Positions 7,812 through 22,371 are shown, counted from the stretch's first letter. The stretch is 64,000 bases of DNA from Candidatus Levyibacteriota bacterium (GCA_029260965.1 JAJDCG010000001.1:89221-153220), one strand, 5' to 3'. Translations and numbers: made by a program. Notes: generated from the sequence alone by a model not told the origin.

Positions 7812-8243
7812 ATGGCATACGATTTGATTCCAAATAGATTTTTATCATTTCCGGGAAATTCGTTATCGTCTATTTTTGATGACGATGAGTTCTTTAATTC
7901 TCCTGTAAGCCAAAATGGTCTTTCTATCTCAGAGGATGAGAAAAAAGTCTATGTAGAAGCTGCAATACCAGGTGTGAATCCTGATAATGTAGAGGTTACA
8001 TTTCATGACGGATACCTCTGGATAAGAGGTGAACAAAAAAAAGAGGAAAAAGATAAAAAGAGAAAGTTCTACAGGCAGGCTGCTACATCTTTCTCATACA
8101 GAGTCGCCGTACCAGGTGAGATAGATCAAAATACAGAGCCTGAGGCTCACTACAAGCACGGTGTGATGAAGGTGCAATTTGCTAAATCTCCCAAAGTTGA
8201 GCCCAAAAAAATTAAAGTCAACGTTGAGAAGCAAGATAAATAA
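7812..8243 (+). CDS. Hsp20/alpha-crystallin family small heat-shock protein
   Basis: An alpha-crystallin domain: VYVEAAIPGVNPDNVEVTFHDGYLWIRGE...FSYRVAVPGEIDQ...HYKHGVMKVQFAK. Confidence 0.8.
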   Translation: MAYDLIPNRFLSFPGNSLSSIFDDDEFFNSPVSQNGLSISEDEKKVYVEAAIPGVNPDNVEVTFHDGYLWIRGEQKKEEKDKKRKFYRQAATSFSYRVAVPGEIDQNTEPEAHYKHGVMKVQFAKSPKVEPKKIKVNVEKQDK

Positions 8244-8271
8244 TTGGAGTTGACAAGGTGAGTATTTAACA

Positions 8272-8300
8272 AAGCTCCGCCTCATGAGGCGGAGCTTTTT
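8272..8300 (+). terminator. Rho-independent terminator after hsp20
   Basis: A perfect hairpin, GCTCCGCCTCATGAGGCGGAGC, followed by TTTTT. Confidence 0.75.
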
Positions 8301-8334
8301 CATGATGTCTAACCCTGTGTTATAATTAGGCTCA

Positions 8335-10521
8335 ATGGACAAGGCATACGATCATAAGAAGTTTGAGGATGATTTATATAATTTTTGGGAGAAAAATGGT
8401 TATTTCAAGCCTGAGATAAATCCTGACGGAAAACCATATTCTATTGTTCTCCCTCCTCCAAATGTAACAGGTACGCTTCATATCGGTCATGCATTTGAAG
8501 GAACGCTTCAGGATATTGCTATTAGATATCATCGCATGCGTGGAGATAAGACCGTTTGGATTCCGGGTACAGATCATGCAGCAATTGCGACTCAGTCAAA
8601 ATTTGAAAAAGAGCTATATAAAAAGCATAAAAAATCAAGGCATGATTTTCCCCGCGAGAAATTCTTTGAGATGGTTAATGAGTTTGCAGTTTCCAATCAG
8701 GATAGAATCTTGGGACAGCTTCATAAAATAGGCTTCTCACTTGACTGGGAGAGGCTTTCTTTTACTTTAGATGAAAAGCGTGAGCTTGCAGTGCGGACTG
8801 CTTTTGAGAAGATGTACAAGGCAGGACTTATTTATAGGGGCGATCGGATAGTTAATTGGGATCCGAAAAGTCAGACAACTGTTGCGGATGATGAGATAGA
8901 GCATGTTAGTCAAAAAGATCCATTTTATTATTTCAAATATGGTCCTTTTATAATTGGAACAGTCAGACCTGAGACAAAATTTGGCGATAAATATGTGGTC
9001 ATGCACCCGAGGGACAAGAGATACAAGGATTATAAACATGGACAAAAAATTGACCTTGAATGGATAAACGGGCCAATGACAGCAACTGTTATTAAGGACG
9101 TGGCTGCGGATATGGATAAAGGATCTGGTGTTATGACGATCACCCCTGCGCACTCTGCAATTGATTTTGAAATAGCTCAAAGACATGGACTTGATATTGA
9201 AAAAGTGATTGATGATAGGGGCATACTTCTTCCAATTGCAGGGGAATTTGAGGGGCAACATATTAAAAAAGCGAGAGCATTGATAGTTGAGAAACTGAGA
9301 AAAAAAGGTCTTGTAGATAGGATAGATGAAAATTATGAGCATAATGTTTCGACAAATTATCGAGGCAACGGTATGATCGAGCCTCAGATTAAAAGACAAT
9401 GGTTTGTTGCTGTTAATAAAGAATTCCGCATTGAAAATTCGAAAATTCCAGGTATCAAATCAGGTTCAGAGGTTACACTTAAGCAAATTATGAAAAAGTC
9501 AGTTGAGGCAGGAGGCGTAAAAATCAAGCCTTTAAGGTTTGAAAAAATCTATTATCACTGGATTGATAATCTCAGAGATTGGTGTATTTCAAGACAAATT
9601 ATATATGGACACCAAATTCCTGTTTGGTACAGAAATGATGATATGTACGTTGGGCTTAAGGCACCCGAGGGAGATGGATGGAAACAGGATACAGACACCC
9701 TTGATACTTGGTTTTCCAGTGGTCTTTGGACTTTCTCAACTCTTGGTTGGCCTGAAAAAACACCAGATCTTAAAACATTTCATCCAAACTCCAATATGAT
9801 GCCAGGATATGAGATTCTTTTTTTCTGGGTTGCTCGCATGATTTTAATGAGCGGATTTTTATTGGGCGAGGTTCCTTTTAGTCGAGTTTATTTACATGGC
9901 ATTGTCCGTGACAAACAGGGAAGAAAGTTTAGTAAATCTTTAAACAATGGCATTGATCCTTTGGAGATGGTTGATAAATACGGAACCGACGCGCTTAGAA
10001 TTGCCCTTATTTTTGGTGCGGGAATTGGAAATGACGTGATGTTTGATGAGCAAAAAGTGAAGGGCATGAAGCATTTTGCCAATAAACTTTGGAATATAGC
10101 GCGGTTTATTGAAGTGAATAAGCAAAAAGCAAAAAGCAGTATGCAAAAAGCAAAAAAAATTGAGGATTTAGAAAAGATTGCAGACAATAAAATTGATAAA
10201 GAGTGGGTGAAAAAAACAGTAAATTTGATAGAAGAAGTCACAAAAAGTTTGGATAATTATAAATTTAATTTAGCTGCAGAAAGGCTTTATGAATTTATAT
10301 GGCATGAGTTTGCGGATGTTTATATAGAAGATGTTAAAAGTAGAATTGATGAAAACTCATTCTCTGTTCTCTGTTCTCTGTTTTCTGTTCAGCTAAAACT
10401 CCTTCATCCCTTCATGCCTTTTGTAACTGAGGCTATTTATCAGGAATTTCGAAAAAACGGGATCTTGACTGAGGGGAAAGAATCGATAATGATTGAGAAA
10501 TACCCTATGCTGAAATTCTAA
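8335..10521 (+). CDS. valS: valine--tRNA ligase (short form)
   Basis: A class I aaRS. The HIGH region is PPPNVTGTLHIGHAF. The KMSKS-like motif is KFSKSLNN. The editing and anticodon-binding regions are valS-like. Confidence 0.8.
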   Translation: MDKAYDHKKFEDDLYNFWEKNGYFKPEINPDGKPYSIVLPPPNVTGTLHIGHAFEGTLQDIAIRYHRMRGDKTVWIPGTDHAAIATQSKFEKELYKKHKKSRHDFPREKFFEMVNEFAVSNQDRILGQLHKIGFSLDWERLSFTLDEKRELAVRTAFEKMYKAGLIYRGDRIVNWDPKSQTTVADDEIEHVSQKDPFYYFKYGPFIIGTVRPETKFGDKYVVMHPRDKRYKDYKHGQKIDLEWINGPMTATVIKDVAADMDKGSGVMTITPAHSAIDFEIAQRHGLDIEKVIDDRGILLPIAGEFEGQHIKKARALIVEKLRKKGLVDRIDENYEHNVSTNYRGNGMIEPQIKRQWFVAVNKEFRIENSKIPGIKSGSEVTLKQIMKKSVEAGGVKIKPLRFEKIYYHWIDNLRDWCISRQIIYGHQIPVWYRNDDMYVGLKAPEGDGWKQDTDTLDTWFSSGLWTFSTLGWPEKTPDLKTFHPNSNMMPGYEILFFWVARMILMSGFLLGEVPFSRVYLHGIVRDKQGRKFSKSLNNGIDPLEMVDKYGTDALRIALIFGAGIGNDVMFDEQKVKGMKHFANKLWNIARFIEVNKQKAKSSMQKAKKIEDLEKIADNKIDKEWVKKTVNLIEEVTKSLDNYKFNLAAERLYEFIWHEFADVYIEDVKSRIDENSFSVLCSLFSVQLKLLHPFMPFVTEAIYQEFRKNGILTEGKESIMIEKYPMLKF
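10362..10389 (+). repeat. heptanucleotide tandem repeat (CTCTGTT x3 plus a variant) inside valS coding sequence
   Basis: The sequence ctctgttctctgttctctgttttctgtt encodes FSVLCSLFSVQ. Confidence 0.6.
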
Positions 10522-12969: not shown

Positions 12970-13335
12970 ATGAGAGAAATAAGAAATTCAAAACTCTATG
13001 ATTTAGAAGATAGGACATTACAGTTTGCAAAAGACAATAGATCGTTTGTCAAACAATTACCAAAAACGATCGGTAATATTGAAGATGGAAAACAACTTGT
13101 GAGATCATCAGGTTCAGTTGGCGCAAATTATATTGAAGCAAACGAATCATTTAGTAAAAAAGATTTTGTATTAAGGACTAAGATTTGCCGTAAAGAGGCA
13201 AAAGAAAGTAGGTATTGGTTAAATTTGGTAGATACAAGTGGTGATACCAAGCTTGAGAAAGAGTGGAAACGCTTAATCCAGGAAGCAACAGAGCTGATGA
13301 ACATTTTTGGTTCAATTATAAGAAAGTCTGAATAG
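12970..13335 (+). CDS. four-helix-bundle protein (23S rRNA intervening-sequence protein family, TIGR02436-like)
   Basis: The core YDLEDRTLQFAKDNRSFVKQLPKT...QLVRSSGSVGANYIEANES.SKKDF..R..I..KEAKESRYWL. It is inserted between ruvA and ruvB. Confidence 0.6.
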   Translation: MREIRNSKLYDLEDRTLQFAKDNRSFVKQLPKTIGNIEDGKQLVRSSGSVGANYIEANESFSKKDFVLRTKICRKEAKESRYWLNLVDTSGDTKLEKEWKRLIQEATELMNIFGSIIRKSE

Positions 13336-13363
13336 TTTATAATTTTGATAATTTAAGTTTTGT

Positions 13364-13398
13364 ATTTGTTTCGGATTTCGGGTTTCGTGCTTCGAATT
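13364..13398. repeat. ~35-nt dispersed intergenic repeat copy (tttgtttcggatttcgggtttcgtgcttcgaattt)
   Basis: Its reverse complement matches 22636-22670 at about 31 of 35 positions. Partial copies lie at 12318-12340 and 12932-12969. All copies sit directly upstream of ATG start codons that lack an SD. Confidence 0.6.
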
Positions 13399-13405
13399 TA
13401 AAGTT

Positions 13406-14446
13406 ATGGATAAGTCTAAAACAAAAGTAAAAGAAGTAAAGGAGGTAACACTTGAAGAGGAAAAACTATTCGTATCCCTCAGGGCTTCTTCCTGGGAGGA
13501 TTTTCATGGTCAGCAGAACATAAAGGCATCGCTTCAGATTGCGATAGAAGCAGCAACCAAAAGAGGTGAGGCAATTGAGCATATCCTTTTGTATGGACCG
13601 CCTGGGCTTGGAAAAACCACGCTTTCTCATATCGTGGCACGGAAAATGAAAGCCAATATCAGGGTCACCTCAGGTCCAGCGCTTGAGCGCTCTGGTGATC
13701 TGGCATCAATTCTGACCAATCTTGAAAAGGGTGACATTTTATTTATTGATGAGATTCACAGGCTCAACCCAACAGTTGAAGAGACACTTTATCCTGCAAT
13801 GGAGGATTTCGCGCTTGATATTGTGCTTGGCAAGGGACCTTCGGCGCGTACTGTCAGGCTTGATCTTCCACAGTTTACGATAATTGGCGCCACAACTCGC
13901 GCAGGACTTCTCTCAGCGCCCCTGAGGGACAGATTTGGAGTAACGCATAGACTCAATTTTTATGAAGCAGAGGAACTTGGAAAAATCATTCAGGAAGCAG
14001 CGGGGAAGCTAAAGGTAAAAATAGATACAGACAGTATAATAGAAATTGCCAAAAGAGCGCGCGGTACACCACGTATTGCTCTCAAGGTTCTCAAAAGAGT
14101 TAGGGATTATGCTCAAGTCAAAGGCGGAGGTCATATTGATTTTGCATCAGCCAAGAAAGCTCTTTCTATGCTTGAGGTTGATGAGAAGGGGCTTGATCCT
14201 CTAGATATTAAATTTCTTCGTGCAATTATTGATAAGCATCATGGAGGTCCTGTTGGGATTGAAACAATTGCATCAACCATTTCTGAAGATAGTGGCACGC
14301 TTGAGGACTTGGTGGAGCCATATCTCATGCAGCTTGGATTTATCAAACGTACATCTCGTGGTCGTGTGGCGACCAAGGCAGCCTACGAGCACTTGGGATT
14401 AACACACCCTGAAGACAAAAGCGGCAAACAGGAAAAGTTGTTATAA
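13406..14446 (+). CDS. ruvB: Holliday junction DNA helicase RuvB
   Basis: The Walker A motif is [18 protein letters not shown]. An AAA+ domain is followed by a winged-helix C-terminus. Confidence 0.9.
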
Positions 14447-14470
14447 AAAAGTTGATTGTAGCCAAAAAGC

Positions 14471-15220
14471 TTACCAGCAAAAGACCCAGAGGAAACAAGA
14501 TTTTTGAGGAGCACTGGGCGGGTTTGTGATCGTTTTTTCTTGAGGAGTATTGGTTGGTTTTACTAGTTGTTTATTTCCTTCAACAGGCTTAGCAATGTTT
14601 TTAACAGTGTTTTTTATGTAGTTAAAGCTGATGGCAAGATAGCCAATACTTGCCTGACTCTTGGGATAATACTTGTTTACTGTTTTTGTGTTATTCGCAC
14701 CAGTTTTAATCGTCAAATTATTACTCCAAGGACCTGTCTTGCAGTCATTTGCAGCTCTCACTTTAAATGTATAGATTGTATTGGGCTTAAGAAGGTAAAT
14801 GTCATATTCTAAGGCTCCAGTGCTTTGGCTTAGGGAAAATTCTGCACCATAGCCTTCGCTATTTTTTCCATCACCAAATGAAACATAATATCCTGTATAT
14901 GGGTGTTGGGAAGGTGTGAAAAAAAGCTTGGCAGTAGTTCTGGTTGTGTCTATTTGAAAAAGATCTGGTGGAGATGTTGGAGCTTGTTTTGTGCAAACAC
15001 TGCTTCCGTCACCTGATGAGCCGGAGTTGGATGATCCAGAATTTGATGAGGATATAGGAGTTGGTGTCGGGCATTGATGATTGTATGAACCTCCTCCATA
15101 GGAGCAACCACCATATGTGGAAGCATTCACTTGTTCACTAGTATAAAAAAAACCAAGTAGAAAAAAGACGATAATAAAAAGAAGGTGAATTAAGCTTTTC
15201 AGCTTTATGGTTAGTAACAT
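14471..15220 (-). CDS. signal-anchored secreted protein with Ser/Gly-rich linker and fibronectin type III-like domain
   Basis: An N-terminal TM helix, then a low-complexity SSNSGSSNSGSSGDGSS stretch. The beta-sandwich-like segment is TTAKLFFTP...YTFKVRAANDCKTGPWS. Confidence 0.45.
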   Translation of the reverse strand: MLLTIKLKSLIHLLFIIVFFLLGFFYTSEQVNASTYGGCSYGGGSYNHQCPTPTPISSSNSGSSNSGSSGDGSSVCTKQAPTSPPDLFQIDTTRTTAKLFFTPSQHPYTGYYVSFGDGKNSEGYGAEFSLSQSTGALEYDIYLLKPNTIYTFKVRAANDCKTGPWSNNLTIKTGANNTKTVNKYYPKSQASIGYLAISFNYIKNTVKNIAKPVEGNKQLVKPTNTPQEKTITNPPSAPQKSCFLWVFCW

Positions 15221-15280
15221 TTTAGCTCTTGATTTTCAGTATATATGCATATATAGTTGATATCAACAGGGGAAATAATT

Positions 15281-15457
15281 ATGTTTGGTATAGGCGTTCA
15301 AGAATTAGTAATAATACTCGTAATCGTACTTTTGCTTTTTGGTGGAAAAAAACTTCCCGAATTGTCAAAGGCTGTTGGTGAGGCAATACGAGACATAAGA
15401 AAAGGCTTTACAGACGATAGTCATAAAGACAATAAAAAAGAAGAGAAAAAGTCTTGA
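15281..15457 (+). CDS. tatA: twin-arginine translocase subunit TatA
   Basis: MFGIGVQELVIILVIVLLLFGGKKLPELSKAVGEAIRDIRKGF. An SD (AGGGGAAAT) precedes the internal ATG at 15281. Confidence 0.8.
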   Translation: MFGIGVQELVIILVIVLLLFGGKKLPELSKAVGEAIRDIRKGFTDDSHKDNKKEEKKS

Positions 15458-15479
15458 CGCGCAATACCTGCACCAATTA

Positions 15480-16334
15480 ATGGAATTATCAGTAAAAAAA
15501 GGCTTAACATTTTTGGATCATATTTCCGAGCTACGATCCCGTCTTTTCTGGTCCTTGTTTAGTTTTTTTATAGGTGGAATAATCGGATTTTTATTAAACA
15601 GTCAGATTTTAGCTTTTCTTATCTCTCCTCTTAGTCAGCCACTTTTCTATTCGTCTCCAGCAGGAGGGTTTGATTTTGTTTTTAAGTTAAGTATTTTTTT
15701 TGGTTTTGTTATATCAATCCCTGTTTTTACTTACCATGTTATTAAATTTATAGAACCTGTACTCTCAGAACATTTTCATGTTTTCATCAGTCGTTTATTG
15801 ATTGCATCATGTCTGCTTACAGCAAGCGGTATTTTATTTGCTTATTATCTTAGTCTTCCCGCAGCTCTTCATTTTCTAAATCAATTTGGATCAGATAAGG
15901 TTCGCTCACTAATTTCAGCTACTGAATATTTCTCATTTGTGACGGCGTACATAGCAGGATTTGCAATTTTATTTCAACTCCCGCTTGTTTTATTTCTTAT
16001 CAACCGTGTTACTCCTCTAAAACCTGGACAATTAATGAAAAGACAACAGTATGTAATACTGGTTAGTTTTATAATTGCAGCCATACTTACACCTACGCCA
16101 GATGTTTTAAATCAGACCATAATGGCTCTTCCCCTGATTGGTTTATATCAAGTATCAATTTTAATTATTTGGGTAAGTAATTACATGGCGCATGTTAAAA
16201 AGGAACATGCAGAGGCTGCAAGTGTGTCATCGCGGAGCAGGTTAAACAGGAGTAAGCTTAGAAAGCTTAAGTTTTTTCAAAGTTCAACTAGAAAATTAAA
16301 TTATCAACCATTAATCAAATCATCATACTCGTAA
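15480..16334 (+). CDS. tatC: twin-arginine translocase subunit TatC
   Basis: Six predicted TM helices. The N-terminus FLDHISELRSRLFWSLFSFF is TatC-like. Confidence 0.8.
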   Translation: MELSVKKGLTFLDHISELRSRLFWSLFSFFIGGIIGFLLNSQILAFLISPLSQPLFYSSPAGGFDFVFKLSIFFGFVISIPVFTYHVIKFIEPVLSEHFHVFISRLLIASCLLTASGILFAYYLSLPAALHFLNQFGSDKVRSLISATEYFSFVTAYIAGFAILFQLPLVLFLINRVTPLKPGQLMKRQQYVILVSFIIAAILTPTPDVLNQTIMALPLIGLYQVSILIIWVSNYMAHVKKEHAEAASVSSRSRLNRSKLRKLKFFQSSTRKLNYQPLIKSSYS

Positions 16335-16338
16335 GATA

Positions 16339-16539
16339 ATGACAAATCCTATTAAAAATATTTTAAATAAAGAAATGAGCAGAAAAGATTTTCTGAGTTA
16401 TTCAGGCATGACTTTATTATCCTTTACAGGAGCTCTGACTATCCTGGGAAAGCTTGAAGATGCAGATCTTCTTAAATTCTACAAAAAACAAACAGTTGGT
16501 TTCGGGTCAGGAAGCTATGGTGGAAAGGAGAAAACATAA
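16339..16539 (+). CDS. small protein with Tat-like (S-R-K-D-F-L) signal peptide
   Basis: MSRKDFLSYSGMTLLSFTGALTILG resembles an S/T-RR-x-F-L-K Tat signal in an RK variant. Its stop overlaps the ATG of the next gene (TAATG). Confidence 0.45.
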   Translation: MTNPIKNILNKEMSRKDFLSYSGMTLLSFTGALTILGKLEDADLLKFYKKQTVGFGSGSYGGKEKT

Positions 16540-18365
16540 TGGCACGATTACCAATACCAGGTTCAGATGATGGAACATGGGGAGATGTGCTCAATGATTT
16601 TTTATCTCAAGAGCATAATTCAGACGGAACACACAATGGAGTAAATGCAGGCTCACTCAAGACCACAGGGGCATCAGTTGTTATTTCAGGTGCAGATGCG
16701 CCAACTACTGGACAAGTTCTCAAAGCAACCAGCGCAACAGTTGCAAGTTGGCAAACGTTGAGCTCAGTTGGAACACCTGAAGTTTTAATTGCTGCTACAA
16801 ACACCGCCCAGGATATAAAAGATGTAGCAGATTATACATGCGATGGAGTCAATGATGAAGTACAGATCAATGCGGCTATTACAAGTCTTGTAACTCTTGG
16901 AGGAAGGGTAGTTCTTAGTTATGGAACTTTTACTGTCTCAGACGAGATTTTGATGAAAACAGGGGTAGAAATATCAGGGCAAGGTCCTGGGACACATGTG
17001 AAAGCATCAGGTTTTTCAGCTGGAAAAGCAATGTTTCGTCTAGCTGATGTCAATGTGCATGCTACAGGAATTTATGACATGTTAATAGATGGAAATTTTT
17101 CGGCTGGTGGAGCGGTTGCTGGTATTGATTATGATAATACAGGTGGCGTTTTTACTGGAGGTGCAATCAGTACTAATTCAGATTGCGCTCATCGTCTGCA
17201 ACGTTTGATTGTCCGAAATACAGGATCAGCTGCGACACCTCGTTATGGTTTTCGTAATATTGGTTCATTTGCGTCAAATTTTGTTAGTGACATTCGTTTT
17301 CAGCAGTGTCGTAATGGCGTATATGTTGACAGTCCAGATTCTTTTTATAGCAATCTTGAAATTTCCTCTGCTGATGGAGTGGGTTTTACTATAGCAGGCG
17401 CCAATAATCGTATCGTCAATTCCAAAGCATATTTTAATGCAACCGATGGATTTCTGATTACTGCCGGACGTAATACGTTGACTGGATGCGAGGCTCAGGA
17501 TAATGGACGTTGGGGATTGAACTTAACTGCTGGGGATTGCAATATCGCTGGGTTTATGGCTGACTCAAATCAGAAAAATGATAATTCAGGTGGTGGTGTG
17601 CTGATTGCAAGTAGTGGGAATAATTTGATTGGACTTGATATTTTTGATCGGGCCCCATCTGGTCATACGTTTCCACAAACAAGAGGTGTGTCATTTTCTG
17701 GTACAAGAACTAATAATGTCGTCATAGGTAGAGTTCATGTGCCTAGTGGCACAAACTATGTTGAAGGCATTACATCTGGTGCCAGCAATTTAATTGAAAT
17801 TGTTACCAAACAAGGTAGTACCGCACAATCGTTAACAACAACTCGTATTAACGCTCAGGACACAAAACCTACTGGTGCTTTATTTCAAAATTTTGATCGA
17901 CAACTAGCAGGTAATACGGCTATTGCTCCTACTTCGGGTACTATGCGACTGGTATCTATTTGGTTACCAGCTGGCACTCTAGTAACATCAGCTACTTTTT
18001 GTGCAGGTACAACTGCCATGTCTGGTGGTACACATGGATGGGCTGCTCTATATGATTCTTCACTTGCTTTAGTTGGATCTCAATCAGCAAATGACACAGG
18101 AATTACGTGGGCAGCTAATGCAGCAAAAACTTTTACGTTTGGCTCTACTTATACTACGACCTACACAGGACTGTATTATGTTGGGCTTTTAATGGTTGCA
18201 AGTACTATGCCAACAATGTGTGGTCAAACAATTGGCATTGGGATATCGGGCATGGCGCCTGCAATGGGGGGGAACTCAACTACAAGTCTGACAACTACAG
18301 CGCCTAACCCTGCTGCTGCAATTTCTGGAGGTACTGCAGGCATGATCTACTGTTATGTTGGTTAA
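16539..18365 (+). CDS. right-handed parallel beta-helix (pectate-lyase-like) protein, tail-fibre/adhesin-like
   Basis: 608 aa and GC-richer. Repeated N/G/T-rich beta-helix rungs, for example NNRIVNSKAYFN..NTLTGCEAQDNGRWGLNLTAGDCNIAG. The C-terminus is Gly/Thr/Ala-rich. The conserved N-terminus is MARLPIPGSDDGTWGD. Confidence 0.55.
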   Translation: MARLPIPGSDDGTWGDVLNDFLSQEHNSDGTHNGVNAGSLKTTGASVVISGADAPTTGQVLKATSATVASWQTLSSVGTPEVLIAATNTAQDIKDVADYTCDGVNDEVQINAAITSLVTLGGRVVLSYGTFTVSDEILMKTGVEISGQGPGTHVKASGFSAGKAMFRLADVNVHATGIYDMLIDGNFSAGGAVAGIDYDNTGGVFTGGAISTNSDCAHRLQRLIVRNTGSAATPRYGFRNIGSFASNFVSDIRFQQCRNGVYVDSPDSFYSNLEISSADGVGFTIAGANNRIVNSKAYFNATDGFLITAGRNTLTGCEAQDNGRWGLNLTAGDCNIAGFMADSNQKNDNSGGGVLIASSGNNLIGLDIFDRAPSGHTFPQTRGVSFSGTRTNNVVIGRVHVPSGTNYVEGITSGASNLIEIVTKQGSTAQSLTTTRINAQDTKPTGALFQNFDRQLAGNTAIAPTSGTMRLVSIWLPAGTLVTSATFCAGTTAMSGGTHGWAALYDSSLALVGSQSANDTGITWAANAAKTFTFGSTYTTTYTGLYYVGLLMVASTMPTMCGQTIGIGISGMAPAMGGNSTTSLTTTAPNPAAAISGGTAGMIYCYVG

Positions 18366-18440
18366 GCCTTATTAAGATCGGGACTCCAACACGCTTAATA
18401 TTTTAGCGAACATAAATATATATAGATAAATAAATTAATA

Positions 18441-18733
18441 ATGGCACGATTACCAATACCAGGTTCAGATGATGGAACATGGGGAGACACCCTTAACGAA
18501 TTCTTATTAGTTGAGCACAACTCTGATGGCAGTCGAGATAATGCTAATACGAGCTTGGGGGTTTAGCCTTTATAGGTGGATCAAGTGCTACTGAGCCTCC
18601 AATCAGCTCAGCGGTTTGGGTGACAAATGCATTGGTTGTGCCAAGTGGTACGACCAAAGTCAGACTAATTGATTTTTTTAAGGGTGCAGGAACTGTTAGA
18701 ATTGGGCGAATGTGTATTAGAAAATCCGGAACT
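18441..18733 (+). pseudogene. decayed partial paralogue of the beta-helix gene (41-codon N-terminal ORF, then a frameshifted C-terminal-like remnant)
   Basis: 18441-18487 is 47/47 identical to 16539-16585. It encodes MARLPIPGSDDGTWGDTLNEFLLVEHNSDG... and stops at 18566. The +2 frame at 18569-18733 is open and encodes ...ALVVPSGTTKVRLIDF, which resembles IWLPAGTLVTSATF of the full gene. Confidence 0.55.
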
Positions 18734-18740
18734 TAGTTTT

Positions 18741-20273
18741 TTAGTACAAACTATCAGTTTTTGGTCTGTATTGTAGCGCTTCAGCAATATGGTTAGGTTT
18801 GATCTCAGAATTTCCCTCTAGATCAGCTATGGTGCGTGCGAGCTTGATCATTCGATAGTAAGATCTACCTGATAAATTCATCTTGCTGACTGCAACACGC
18901 AGGAGATTTACACACTCTTCTGTTAGTGCGCAAAAAACTTTTATATCCCTGTTAGTCAGTTCAGCATTTGATGCAATGTTTGATTTTTTATATCGCTTGA
19001 TCTGTTTGTTTCGTGCAGCCTGTACTCTTTTTCTGATGCTTTTAGAGTCTTCAATTGAACCTGAATCTGCTTCAGTTAGTTTTTCTACCTTTACAGCTGG
19101 AACCTCGATATGAATATCAATTCTATCAAGAAGCGGTCCTGAGACCTTTTTTTGATAACGAAGGATTTGTGACGGCGCGCAGCTGCAGGGTTTTTGTTTA
19201 TCCCCAAGATATCCACAAGGGCAAGGATTCTGAGCTGCAACAAGCATGAATTTGGCTGGAAAAGTTACCTTGCCTTTGGATCTGGAGACAGAAACAATAT
19301 TGTCCTCAATTGGTTGCCTGAGACTTTCAAGCACGCTGCGTGGGAATTCAGGAAATTCGTCAAGAAAGAGTACTCCGCGATGGGCAAGTGTGATTTCGCC
19401 TGGTTTTGGATGAGAGCCACCACCTATGAGACCAACCAGGGAGGTTGTGTGGTGGGGTGATCTGAAAGGACGGGTTTTGACCATTGCATCTTTACCCAGA
19501 AGACCTGCGATTGAGTAAATTTTAGTGACTTCAATCATTTCATCAAACGTAAGATCTGGAAGAATTGATGGAAAGGATCTAGCCAAAAGCGTTTTTCCAG
19601 CGCCAGGCGGGCCCTTCATTAAAATATTGTGCCCACCTGCTGCTGCTATTTCAAGCGCTCTTTTGGTTTGTTGTTGGCCTTTTATTTCACGCATATCATA
19701 CTCAAAGCTCGTGTTTGAATTTTGGCTAGAAAACCTGAGGGGCTTTATGGGCTTTATTGCAGTTAGATTTGCTAGATGTTGATAAATCTCTTTAAGTGTG
19801 CTGACAGGATAAATATCAAGCTTTGTGACAATTGCTGCTTCGCGAGCATTTTCTGAGGGCAGGAAAAGTCTTTTGTATTTTTTATCTTTGGCCAATATTG
19901 CTTGATTTAGTGCCCCGTTTATGGAACGCACACGTCCATCAAGTGAAAGCTCGCCTGTGAAAATCGCATCATTAGCATCAGTTACGAGTTGGCCAGATGC
20001 CATCAGTATTCCAAGGGCAATTGGCAAATCATAAGACGCGCCTTCTTTTGGTAGATCCGCTGGCGCGAGATTAACTGTTATTTTTTTGGCAGGAAATTCA
20101 GCGCCTGTGTTTTTGATAGCAGATCGCACTCGTTCTTTGGCCTCATCAACTGATTTATCAGGAAGCCCAACAATGGTAAATGAGGGAAGTCCCATGGAAG
20201 CTATATCCACCTCTACCTCAATCGGTACAGCCTCAAGTCCGATAACAGCAGCGGAAATGACTTTTGCCAGCAT
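18741..20273 (-). CDS. YifB/ComM family Mg-chelatase-like AAA+ ATPase
   Basis: The N-terminal Lon-like domain is MLAKVISAAVIGLEAVPIEVEVD. Walker A is GPPGAGKT. The C-terminus is typical of ComM. The start was set at the internal Met at 20273. Confidence 0.8.
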   Translation of the reverse strand: MLAKVISAAVIGLEAVPIEVEVDIASMGLPSFTIVGLPDKSVDEAKERVRSAIKNTGAEFPAKKITVNLAPADLPKEGASYDLPIALGILMASGQLVTDANDAIFTGELSLDGRVRSINGALNQAILAKDKKYKRLFLPSENAREAAIVTKLDIYPVSTLKEIYQHLANLTAIKPIKPLRFSSQNSNTSFEYDMREIKGQQQTKRALEIAAAGGHNILMKGPPGAGKTLLARSFPSILPDLTFDEMIEVTKIYSIAGLLGKDAMVKTRPFRSPHHTTSLVGLIGGGSHPKPGEITLAHRGVLFLDEFPEFPRSVLESLRQPIEDNIVSVSRSKGKVTFPAKFMLVAAQNPCPCGYLGDKQKPCSCAPSQILRYQKKVSGPLLDRIDIHIEVPAVKVEKLTEADSGSIEDSKSIRKRVQAARNKQIKRYKKSNIASNAELTNRDIKVFCALTEECVNLLRVAVSKMNLSGRSYYRMIKLARTIADLEGNSEIKPNHIAEALQYRPKTDSLY

Positions 20274-20354
20274 AGATTTATGATAGCAGAAAGTTTCTCT
20301 CAAAGAATGTTTTGAAACTTTTTTTCTCCAAAGTGCGTATAATAAGGGCGCGAG

Positions 20355-20876
20355 ATGGATGAGAAAAAAATAATTAATCAAATCCTGGCAGGGGATGATA
20401 AGAAATATAAATTACTTTTGGAACGTTACCAGCCAGGTCTCGTCCGACATTGTCTTGCTATGGTGCATGATCCAGAACAGGCAAACGATTTGGTGCAAGA
20501 AGCATCAATCAAAGCTTATTTTCAGCTTAAAAAGTATGACGATAAATACCGTTTTTCTACCTGGATTTATAAGATTGCAACCAATTTAAGTCTGGATTAT
20601 TTAAGAAAGAAGAAACATTTCTCTCTTGAAGATGTTTCTGATTTGAGAAGCAACATGCCAACACCGCCAGAAGAATTGGATAAGAAGGAAGCTGTGAATT
20701 CAGTGCAAAAAGCAGTCATGAAATTACCAATAAAATATCAAGGTGTTATAAGTCTTTATTACTGGCAGGATCAAACTTATGAAGAAATTGCACATATTAT
20801 GAACGTGCCAACAAATACTATTCGTACTTGGCTTAAAAGAGCAAAGGAAAAATTAAAGGAGGAGCTGAATGGATAA
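20355..20876 (+). CDS. ECF-type RNA polymerase sigma factor (sigma-70 family regions 2 and 4)
   Basis: Region 2 is DLVQEASIKAYFQLKKYDDKYRFSTWIYKIATNLSLDYLRKK. Region 4 is the HTH EIAHIMNVPTNTIRTWLKRAKEKL. Confidence 0.8.
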   Translation: MDEKKIINQILAGDDKKYKLLLERYQPGLVRHCLAMVHDPEQANDLVQEASIKAYFQLKKYDDKYRFSTWIYKIATNLSLDYLRKKKHFSLEDVSDLRSNMPTPPEELDKKEAVNSVQKAVMKLPIKYQGVISLYYWQDQTYEEIAHIMNVPTNTIRTWLKRAKEKLKEELNG

Positions 20877-22371
20877 TCTGGATAAACTGTTGCAAAAAAA
20901 TGAACTTAAGGCAAAGGCTAGAGAAAGTCTGACTGAGGATACTTTGATTTTAATTTCAGAGATAAAGTCTGTAAAGACAATCCAAAAAAAACTGGCATTT
21001 ACATTTTTTGTACTTGTTTTTATTTTTATCACCAAGTGGCTCAGTAATGATATATTATTTTTAATAAATTTAGCAATTACAAAATACACTTTTGTCCGTT
21101 CGCAGATGTTTTTATATTTTGAAGCATTACTTGAATCTATCCCAAGGTTTCAATTTTTCGCAATTCTTTTTACCAGTATTTTATGGCTAGGATGGAAGAG
21201 GTTTGAAACTTTTATTCAGCACACTCGTATAACAAGTAAGAAAACATTTGCTATGAAAATTATGAAAATGACACCACGACTACTTATTGCAAGTATATTA
21301 TTGGTAGGTACTGTTTTGGGTTTTTCTGGATATACCTATGCTCAAAAAGAGGAACAAAAAAAACTTGAGATTTTAAAAGAATATGTTAATGCGACCGGAC
21401 GGGTAGAGCTTGATACAAACTATGAAGAGGAGTGTAAATCTTCGCTTGGTGACTATCTACAAAATCGAACTAATAAATTTGAAATTAAACAAGGATCAGG
21501 ACTTAGCGCAGGAGATGCTCAGAAAATATTGGAAGCTAACTGTCTTGTCCGCAATGCAAGAATGTTTATTAAAGATAAATTTTCAAGTGGGAAACAAAAC
21601 AGCAGCAGTTATGAACATATGATATTAGGAGAGTCTAAAATTATAGAACTGTCAAAAAATACAATAACAATAGAGTTTTCAAACGTTCCAGAAAAAATTC
21701 AAATTCCTTCGGAAGAATATACTGTCACGAATAATACAAAAATATATAAAAATCAGATCTTAACCTCAAAAGAGTCACTTAAAAAAGGTGACATTGTAAT
21801 AGTCATAGGTGAGCATGGTGATAGAGAAAATACCGATAAAGCATTAATAAGCAAAGAGGCGTTGGGAGTTTACGTTCTTCCAGAACAGCCTGAATTTAAA
21901 TGGTATAATCCGATGTTGATTTACTCTCTTACTCAGATTCAACATTGTGAAGGTAACCCTGATGACAGATGCAGCTTTACAGGAAGTATAGATCTTTTTC
22001 CAAGTGGTGCTGGAGAAGGAAATTTTTTTAATCCGAAATTTACTCCATTGGAGTTTCCTCCCACTAAAAATAGTCCTGTTATAAAAGAAATTGCTGGATC
22101 GTTGATTGAAATTAACGATAAATATGTAAAAATTAAATCTTCATCAGGAAGAGAGCTTACGGTAAATTTTCAAAGCAATCCGATTGATTATTTTAATAAA
22201 AATATTTCACAAAATCATAATAATCTAAAAATAGAATTAGGTGATACGATTATGGTAAGATATGCTGAAGCACACGATGAGCATTCAGTAATTATAGAAA
22301 ATAAACAGATAATGAATGCAGTTTTTGTAATAGAAGTTACATTAAAATATGATTCGGTTGAGAAGTATTAA
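20869..22371 (+). CDS. putative membrane anti-sigma factor / regulatory partner of the ECF sigma
   Basis: Its start overlaps the sigma gene stop (ATGGATAA). A short cytoplasmic N-terminus is followed by TM segments and a large extracytoplasmic domain with no known fold. Confidence 0.4.
   Translation: MDNLDKLLQKNELKAKARESLTEDTLILISEIKSVKTIQKKLAFTFFVLVFIFITKWLSNDILFLINLAITKYTFVRSQMFLYFEALLESIPRFQFFAILFTSILWLGWKRFETFIQHTRITSKKTFAMKIMKMTPRLLIASILLVGTVLGFSGYTYAQKEEQKKLEILKEYVNATGRVELDTNYEEECKSSLGDYLQNRTNKFEIKQGSGLSAGDAQKILEANCLVRNARMFIKDKFSSGKQNSSSYEHMILGESKIIELSKNTITIEFSNVPEKIQIPSEEYTVTNNTKIYKNQILTSKESLKKGDIVIVIGEHGDRENTDKALISKEALGVYVLPEQPEFKWYNPMLIYSLTQIQHCEGNPDDRCSFTGSIDLFPSGAGEGNFFNPKFTPLEFPPTKNSPVIKEIAGSLIEINDKYVKIKSSSGRELTVNFQSNPIDYFNKNISQNHNNLKIELGDTIMVRYAEAHDEHSVIIENKQIMNAVFVIEVTLKYDSVEKY

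Follow-up and report, generated by a model that had tools for sequence, protein, structure and literature searches.

Background

In the silent-cassette systems of Neisseria (pilE/pilS), Borrelia (vlsE) and Anaplasma (msp2), a promoterless partial copy lies beside an expressed gene and one segment is perfectly conserved; the cassettes are many, are homologous to the variable region, and are flanked by conserved sequence on both sides. In the Gin system of phage Mu, the Cin system of P1 and the Rci shufflons of R64, recombination at short inverted repeats couples a constant N-terminal part to alternative C-terminal parts, and a site-specific recombinase is encoded next to them. The tail fibres and tailspikes of phages (P22/HK620/Sf6, CBA120) likewise combine a conserved N-terminus with exchangeable bodies, and their mosaic genes have breakpoints at the module boundary. 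Tandem paralogues that undergo birth-and-death evolution with short-tract gene conversion show deletion, homopolymer frameshift, lost translation signals and a homogenised tract next to saturated divergence.

The window discussed here is the whole stretch of 64,000 nt that was analysed, from Candidatus Levyibacteriota bacterium (GCA_029260965.1; JAJDCG010000001.1:89221-153220); features lie on the plus strand unless stated otherwise. It holds a 608-aa gene (gene A) followed by a short fragment (fragment B) with the same 5' end. The pair shares with pilE/pilS, vlsE and msp2 a promoterless partial copy beside an expressed gene and one perfectly conserved segment, but here there is one fragment with an unrelated body, homologous only in the 5' module, and the direct orientation of the repeats favours deletion. 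As in the Mu, P1 and R64 systems a constant N-terminal part is joined to alternative C-terminal parts through recombination within the coding sequence, whereas here the repeats are direct, no recombinase is encoded nearby, and the alternative part is defective. In architecture there is a likeness to phage tail fibres and tailspikes: the bodies are exchangeable (beta-helix lyase-like, GDSL esterase, collagen-like, fibre repeats), the breakpoints fall at the module boundary, and the gene A beta-helix structurally matches the tailspikes of CBA120 and HK620. Unlike those, the present genes are chromosomal and multi-copy, stand among housekeeping genes (ruvABC, tatAC, comM) of a bacterium of the candidate phyla radiation (CPR), with no other phage genes nearby, and do not imply attachment to a virion. 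From ordinary tandem-paralogue birth-and-death with short-tract conversion nothing essential differs, the sole oddity being that the tract lies within a module extremely conserved at protein level across hundreds of genomes.

Gene A and the 50-nt direct repeat

Gene A (16539-18365; 608 aa) is preceded by a Shine-Dalgarno sequence, AAGGAG (16525-16530), which was read from the sequence 8 nt before the ATG. Its first 33 codons (16539-16637) form the MARLP module described below, residues ~80-425 a predicted beta-helix, and residues 438-608 an orphan C-terminus. The protein itself has no Pfam match; its homologues, 30-35% identical over the first 56%, carry Pfam Beta_helix. The AlphaFold2 model is confident at ~80-425, with pLDDT mostly 83-98 over 80-400 and a low-confidence loop at 202-214. 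The best Foldseek matches are to the AlgE4/AlgE6 epimerases and to the tailspikes of CBA120 (TSP2/3) and HK620, with E-values of 3e-8 to 1e-5 for AlgE4/E6 and CBA120 TSP2/3. The predicted structure is that of a right-handed parallel beta-helix, of the carbohydrate-active or tailspike type. No homologue of residues 438-608 (17850-18362) was detected among 5.8 billion clustered proteins, and their AlphaFold2 pLDDT is below 50; these C-terminal ~170 residues form an orphan domain, which could be the part that determines specificity.

A sequence-only reading of the window had noticed that 18441-18487 is identical at 47/47 positions to 16539-16585. This proved correct, and three more identical nucleotides upstream extend it to a 50-nt direct repeat (16536-16585 and 18438-18487; 50/50 identical, spacing 1,902 nt), of which 3 nt precede the start codon and 47 nt are coding. 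These two copies were the only ones in the window in a search tolerating 3 mismatches, and 0/100 shuffles gave a match. Between 13000 and 21000 there are no further repeats of at least 30 nt, nor are there inverted repeats.

Up to nucleotide 47 the coding sequences of gene A and the fragment show 0/47 differences, and thereafter 20/46 (Fisher p = 5e-8). From nucleotide 48 on, the divergence equals that of any paralogue pair in a comparison across the family. The reading had also seen homology at protein level past the identical 5' end, which is borne out by 27/36 identical residues; within codons 16-30 the third position differs in 9/11 codons specifying the same residue. Since third positions are saturated past nucleotide 47, the downstream homology is old and anciently diverged, and the first 50 nt became identical recently.

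The spacer between gene A and fragment B (18366-18437) is AT-rich and ~75 nt long. It holds no Shine-Dalgarno sequence ahead of fragment B, in contrast to the AAGGAG of gene A, and no promoter or terminator was called in it. An RNA element in the spacer or the 5' end was considered and set aside, since Rfam gave no match and the predicted folding was not significant (z = -1.1).

Composition of fragment B

Fragment B opens with a module remnant of 31 codons (18441-18533; MARLPIPGSDDGTWGDTLNEFLLVEHNSDGS). In frame 0 it ends after 41 codons, as had been claimed, at a premature TAG (18564-18566). A +2-frame stretch follows, which is indeed open at 18569-18733; the likeness of its product to the C-terminus of the 608-aa gene, the other half of the same claim, was rejected. 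By tblastn the product gave two non-colinear matches to gene A (E-values of 0.07 and 0.2, with 434 nt searched), and a profile comparison (hhalign) with the last 208 residues of gene A returned a probability of 0.2%.

Searched with phmmer against 1.84 billion representative proteins, the 55-residue +2-frame product gave four matches, three of them to the extreme C-termini of P0070 (449 aa), P0071 (555 aa) and P0073 (413 aa), with E-values of 8.6e-12, 1.1e-10 and 4.5e-6 respectively. Pfam Lipase_GDSL_2, the GDSL/SGNH hydrolase domain, is present in P0070 and P0073. The P0073 gene (8001-9242) lies on a 38.6-kb phage-like contig (L121; Logan SRR15505513) that also specifies a lytic transglycosylase, a protein with a faint capsid-like match and a family-A DNA polymerase, the GDSL gene standing between the last two.

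The frame-0 tail of the fragment, RDNANTSLGV, resembles RDNANVSLGV of P0071, which stands directly upstream of the +2-frame match in that protein. When one G is added to the G5 homopolymer at 18557-18561, which has one base fewer than in the homologues, a continuous frame of 98 codons results, codons 1-31 being module and codons 32-98 the C-terminus of a GDSL protein. The latter align without gaps to residues 383-449 of P0070 and with a single one-residue gap to residues 490-555 of P0071, at 54-58% identity over 67 residues and in both cases up to the stop. The C-terminal remnant (18534-18736; RDNANTSLG...RIGRMCIRKSGT*) thus corresponds to the final 67 codons of a protein of the GDSL-hydrolase type, in frame with codon 31 at the junction 18533/18534 and now split across frame 0 and frame +2. 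Its alignment reaches the very end of the protein, as belongs to the C-terminal domain of GDSL/SGNH tail-type proteins, and the motif that it shares with its GDSL/SGNH relatives is ...GTTK[VI]R...KGAGT.RIG.M. Judged from homologues of 413-555 aa, the missing interior would amount to ~315-460 codons, or ~0.95-1.4 kb.

By these alignments the fragment is an in-frame internal-deletion derivative that subsequently suffered a one-base frameshift. The description of it as a decayed duplicate of the beta-helix gene was wrong, in that the body 3' of the module is a GDSL-hydrolase-type C-terminus; fragment B is the remnant of a different paralogue, which shares with gene A only the N-terminal module. 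Relative to intact homologues it is a pseudogene in three respects, namely its disrupted frame, its missing interior and its want of a Shine-Dalgarno sequence. Having no ribosome-binding site, it is, we infer, most likely not expressed. The frameshift was read from a single assembly, and were it a miscall the 98-codon reading frame would be intact and would still encode only part of a domain. Open reading frames of at least 150 aa tile the window, which argues against an assembly riddled with homopolymer errors.

The putative ancestral architecture of gene B is deduced from just the three proteins that share its C-terminal domain (P0070, P0071 and P0073), and the MARLP module is absent from all three. 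An SGNH catalytic domain in the ancestor would be read solely from P0070, P0073 and proteins such as P0018, in which the module-plus-GDSL architecture exists. Proteins with this C-terminal domain seem to stem from high-GC organisms, whereas the window has 37% GC, which suggests that the domain moves between phages and CPR genomes.

The MARLP module family

Both gene A and fragment B carry the module at the start of the reading frame. Its consensus is M-A-R-L-P-x-P-G-x-D-x-G-T-W-G-x-[ILV]-L-N-x-[FY]-L-x3-H-x2-D-G, or in short form MARLPxPGxDxGTWG..LN..L...HN.DG, of ~33 residues. Over the first 33 residues (MARLPIPGSDDGTWGDVLNDFLS.EHNSDGT), ~60 otherwise different proteins show 75-91% identity; their bodies consist of tail-fibre repeats (DUF5907, PTR, BppL_N), Beta_helix, GDSL lipase or collagen repeats. 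In Pfam, NCBIfam and the PDB the module has no match of its own, and literature on DUF5907, Saccharibacteria Tat and Patescibacteria tail fibres yielded no description of the family. The MARLP module is apparently undescribed.

A degenerate DNA pattern located the module in at least 120 blocks (8 kb) of species-representative genomes, with at least 126 copies and up to four in 16 kb. The blocks listed are mostly from Saccharibacteria, with others from further CPR bacteria, Chloroflexota and Actinomycetota, and they include single Burkholderiales and Verrucomicrobiia MAGs. Among Actinomycetota the module was seen in genomes of Mycolicibacterium agri, Acidithrix ferrooxidans, Galbitalea, Salinibacterium and Pseudonocardiales. 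Cultivated Saccharibacteria grow on actinobacterial hosts.

In phages, the module stands at the start of proteins from Streptomyces phages (six records, among them gp186 of BRock, L202), and it occurs in 26 IMG/VR viral contigs (L203-L228). In one of these, L207, the module gene (8001-9365) directly follows the tape-measure gene, the usual place of a minor tail protein. The family is large and multi-copy and comprises tail-fibre-like proteins in Saccharibacteria and other CPR bacteria, and putative minor-tail proteins in actinophages.

An exact shared 5' segment followed by ordinary divergence was found in 2/45 within-genome paralogue pairs, counted over loci among the matches listed. In the JACOTW pair, L027:6768(-) and L029:334(+), the exact segment runs from -59 to +44 (103 nt), and in the CAYTYX pair, L037:282(+) and L054:411(+), from -64 to +48 (112 nt). 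Both shared units hold promoter-like sequence, a ribosome-binding site and the 5'UTR, and the genes are full-length with diverged bodies. In each of these two pairs different genes thus reuse a common 'expression head'. The right-hand boundaries of the shared segments, at 44, 47 and 48 when the present locus is included, all lie just past the invariant G-T-W-G codons. It is around G-T-W-G that the paralogues are most alike, so homologous crossovers would be expected to resolve there and a site-specific mechanism need not be invoked.

General concerted evolution of the 5' ends was rejected, within-genome identity being raised equally for nucleotides 1-48 and 49-99; only rare discrete events are seen. 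Degraded family members occur elsewhere as well: a decayed copy in L083 is multiply frameshifted and lies downstream of an intact copy, and a stub copy in L016 abuts a convergent gene.

Genomic context and a close relative

Gene A follows a small ORF of 66 aa (16339-16539) with a Tat-signal-like N-terminus (SRKDFL and a hydrophobic stretch). It matches NCBIfam NF038009, 'Tat system-associated protein', at 28 bits, which is below the cut-off. The TAA stop of the small ORF overlaps the ATG of the family gene (TAATG) both in the window, where that gene is gene A, and in L038, and homologues of the small ORF sit upstream of family genes in other genomes. Common to these small Tat-signal-like proteins are the motif M(S/D)R(K/R)(D/E)F, a hydrophobic stretch, and a tail of the form GYG..YGG. 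Among the matches listed tatC is present in 18/120 module-bearing blocks, often in the order tatA, tatC, small ORF, family gene, as in the window. Such Tat-linked module genes were observed here (15257-16539) and in L001, L003, L024, L038, L047, L050, L063, L098 and others. Inspection of N-termini by eye revealed no signal peptide in the family proteins. The linkage to tatA/tatC and the small ORF, together with the lack of a visible signal peptide, suggests that the module may be tied to Tat export, by hitch-hiking.

On the other side, fragment B is convergent with a ComM/Mg-chelatase-like gene (18741-20273, minus strand), identified by Pfam, which forms a conserved right flank. The neighbours include genes for a class I aminoacyl-tRNA synthetase, L25, RuvC/A/B, TatA/C, ComM, an ECF sigma factor and a P-type ATPase. 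The ORFs scanned within ~10 kb on either side included no gene for a recombinase, an integrase or a reverse transcriptase. In distant relatives (L124-L126, L141 and L143; ComM 60-65% identical) ruvB and comM are convergent neighbours, and the 0.5-3 kb that separate them contain neither tat genes nor family genes, so the block 14471-18736 (fn3 protein, tatA, tatC, small ORF, family genes) seems to have entered the lineage of the window as one insertion. A scan of metagenomes with ComM found nearest relatives 53-67% identical and without the whole tat/MARLP block, and no strain-level variants.

A close relative was available in L009 (JAJDCH010000013.1), a MAG labelled Levyibacteriota. Its ComM protein is 94% and the corresponding DNA 87% identical to that of the window, with flanks of 87-90% nucleotide identity. 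The last part of the small upstream ORF has the same protein sequence in both (100% identity); the L009 contig stops 73 nt ahead of the family gene. Where the window has gene A and fragment B, L009 carries one family gene of 533 aa (P0036, Pectate_lyase_3 type), and the body of P0036 is unrelated to both. At nucleotide level L009 is homologous to the window from upstream as far as ~nt 68-89 of the gene A coding sequence, and again from 18740, where the ComM gene ends; there are 4 differences in the first 68 nt and then 11 in 25. Against nucleotides 48-68 of gene B, L009 shows 10/21 differences. This gap in homology, from the module to comM, implies that everything between was exchanged in one of the two lineages and that the left breakpoint lies within the module. 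By this comparison the segment between module and comM is a replacement hot spot. A likeness of L009 to fragment B at nucleotides 69-93 was considered as a third breakpoint and dismissed, half of the synonymous sites being different, so that the similarity is at the protein level only.

Origin of fragment B

The fragment is probably the decayed remnant of a second, tandem member of the family, its 50-nt identity to gene A being the result of a recent homologous recombination event in the module. Genes A and B would have been tandem paralogues with a shared module and unrelated bodies, gene B having formerly been full-length with a GDSL/SGNH-type C-terminal domain. An in-frame deletion would then have removed ~0.95-1.4 kb of its interior and joined codon 31 to the last 67 codons, and the subsequent loss of one G from the G5 run would have brought about the stop after 41 codons. 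A short homologous-recombination event inside the module, in its simplest form a gene conversion between the tandem neighbours, would have erased the differences over the first 50 nt. A and B have no sequence in common other than the module, and crossovers would resolve at its most conserved codons, 10-15 (D-x-G-T-W-G).

The suggestion in the sequence-only reading that recombination or gene conversion lay behind the conserved 5' end is supported by the contrast of 0/47 with 20/46 differences and by the recurrence of such mosaics in two other genomes; its fallback, plain decay, was right as well, as witnessed by the internal deletion, the frameshift and the missing Shine-Dalgarno sequence. Its observation was real in the 47-nt identity and misdescribed in the likeness to the C-terminus of gene A, and its interpretation, sound as to recombination and decay, was largely wrong in taking the fragment for a duplicate and a cassette. 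Overall, the locus is best explained by ordinary turnover, through gene birth and death, in a modular family prone to recombination.

That the event was a gene conversion and not an insertion joint we infer as probable, and the same holds for its direction. A conversion tract that starts exactly where homology starts, at -3, is unusual and would fit an insertion joint equally well. Under such a joint, a serious if less likely alternative, gene B would have been the resident gene, translationally coupled to the small Tat-signal ORF, and the body of gene A with its 3' spacer would have entered by crossovers in the module, from an imported tandem array or an excised circle; the first 50 nt would thereby have been duplicated, the ribosome-binding site taken over, and gene B displaced and left to decay. 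The identity does begin exactly at the TAATG stop/start overlap, gene B has no Shine-Dalgarno sequence of its own, body replacement with a breakpoint inside the module took place at this very locus by comparison with L009, and tandem arrays with 75-100-nt spacers and identical-5'-module genes exist in other genomes. It is the 5' end of gene A, however, that continues the orthologous flank, with only 4 differences from L009 in 68 nt. Since gene A resembles L009 there and nucleotides 48-68 of gene B do not (10/21 differences), gene B does not look like the ancestral resident. An insertion joint would also need a donor whose downstream module was already identical over 50 nt.

Another reading is that the region still codes for a functional short protein, either the 41-residue module peptide or, with the G5 frameshift a sequencing error or bypassed by slippage, one of 98 residues. 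We consider this quite improbable. One changed base does restore a continuous frame, the deletion is in frame, and family members of 97-140 aa occur in other genomes. To be set against this are the lack of a Shine-Dalgarno sequence and of any promoter call, the fact that the 67-residue piece is just the end of a C-terminal region that is longer in the homologues, and the sequence G5 then UUUAG, which is no canonical slippery site. A search with the 41-aa ORF as query returned seven short ORFs only; of two that were looked up, one lay on a contig of fragmented genes and the other was a frameshifted longer gene, and several others are on very short contigs. Short ORFs matching the query are frameshifted longer genes or are ended by contig edges.

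The proposal that had accompanied the original observation, a silent cassette kept as donor for programmed surface-protein variation of the pilin kind, is highly improbable. A perfectly kept 5' end beside divergent sequence, a variable multi-copy family and a locus hypervariable between relatives are what one would look for in such a system. Yet the 64-kb window contains a single fragment and, at nucleotide and protein level, no module copy beyond those of gene A and fragment B. As the body of the fragment has no homology to that of gene A, there is no variant segment to donate; homology exists on one side only, and what is left is just 67 codons of a truncated domain, and frameshifted. No recombinase or reverse transcriptase is encoded within ~10 kb, no other repeats were found, and the repeats being direct, recombination between them would simply delete gene A. 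Two other switching mechanisms were likewise rejected: site-specific inversion or a shufflon, on account of the direct repeat, the lack of inverted sites and the absence of a recombinase among the ORFs within ~10 kb; and a diversity-generating retroelement, there being no further repeat of at least 30 nt in 13000-21000 and no reverse transcriptase within ~10 kb.

An artefact of assembly or polishing is hardly credible as the source of the tandem order or of the 50-nt identity, for although the assembly is of metagenome type and the L009 contig end, 73 nt upstream of the family gene, suggests a region that is hard to assemble, the repeat sits inside a contig of 549,591 bp with unique flanks near both copies, ordinary reads can span 50 nt, the join of gene A 3' end, spacer and module must be present in reads, and comparable mosaics exist in independent assemblies.

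Implications

Fragment B is, on the preferred reading of decay and recombination between tandem paralogues, an ordinary remnant of a gene in which a short tract has recombined, and it should not be counted as evidence of machinery for antigenic variation in CPR bacteria. Its context is the more useful part, in that it exposes an extremely conserved 33-residue module shared with putative minor-tail proteins of actinophages. The family is often linked to tatA/tatC, and at this locus at least, close relatives differ by wholesale replacement of the gene body. Among Saccharibacteria and the ultra-small bacteria related to them, the module heads hundreds of tail-fibre-, depolymerase- and esterase-like proteins; these are candidate determinants of host recognition or breaching by episymbionts, and the module offers a simple means of finding them.

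A wider reading, which we put forward tentatively and with considerable doubt, is that the module serves CPR episymbionts as a dedicated docking or export 'handle', possibly a Tat hitch-hiker by way of the small ORF protein, and at the same time as the point at which domains are swapped, the fragment being a scar of such a swap and the tatC-comM interval a hot spot of exchange. If this were true, phage-derived host-recognition or wall-degrading domains would be swapped in and out of chromosomal expression sites, and the Tat-comM locus would tune which host surfaces an episymbiont can attack.
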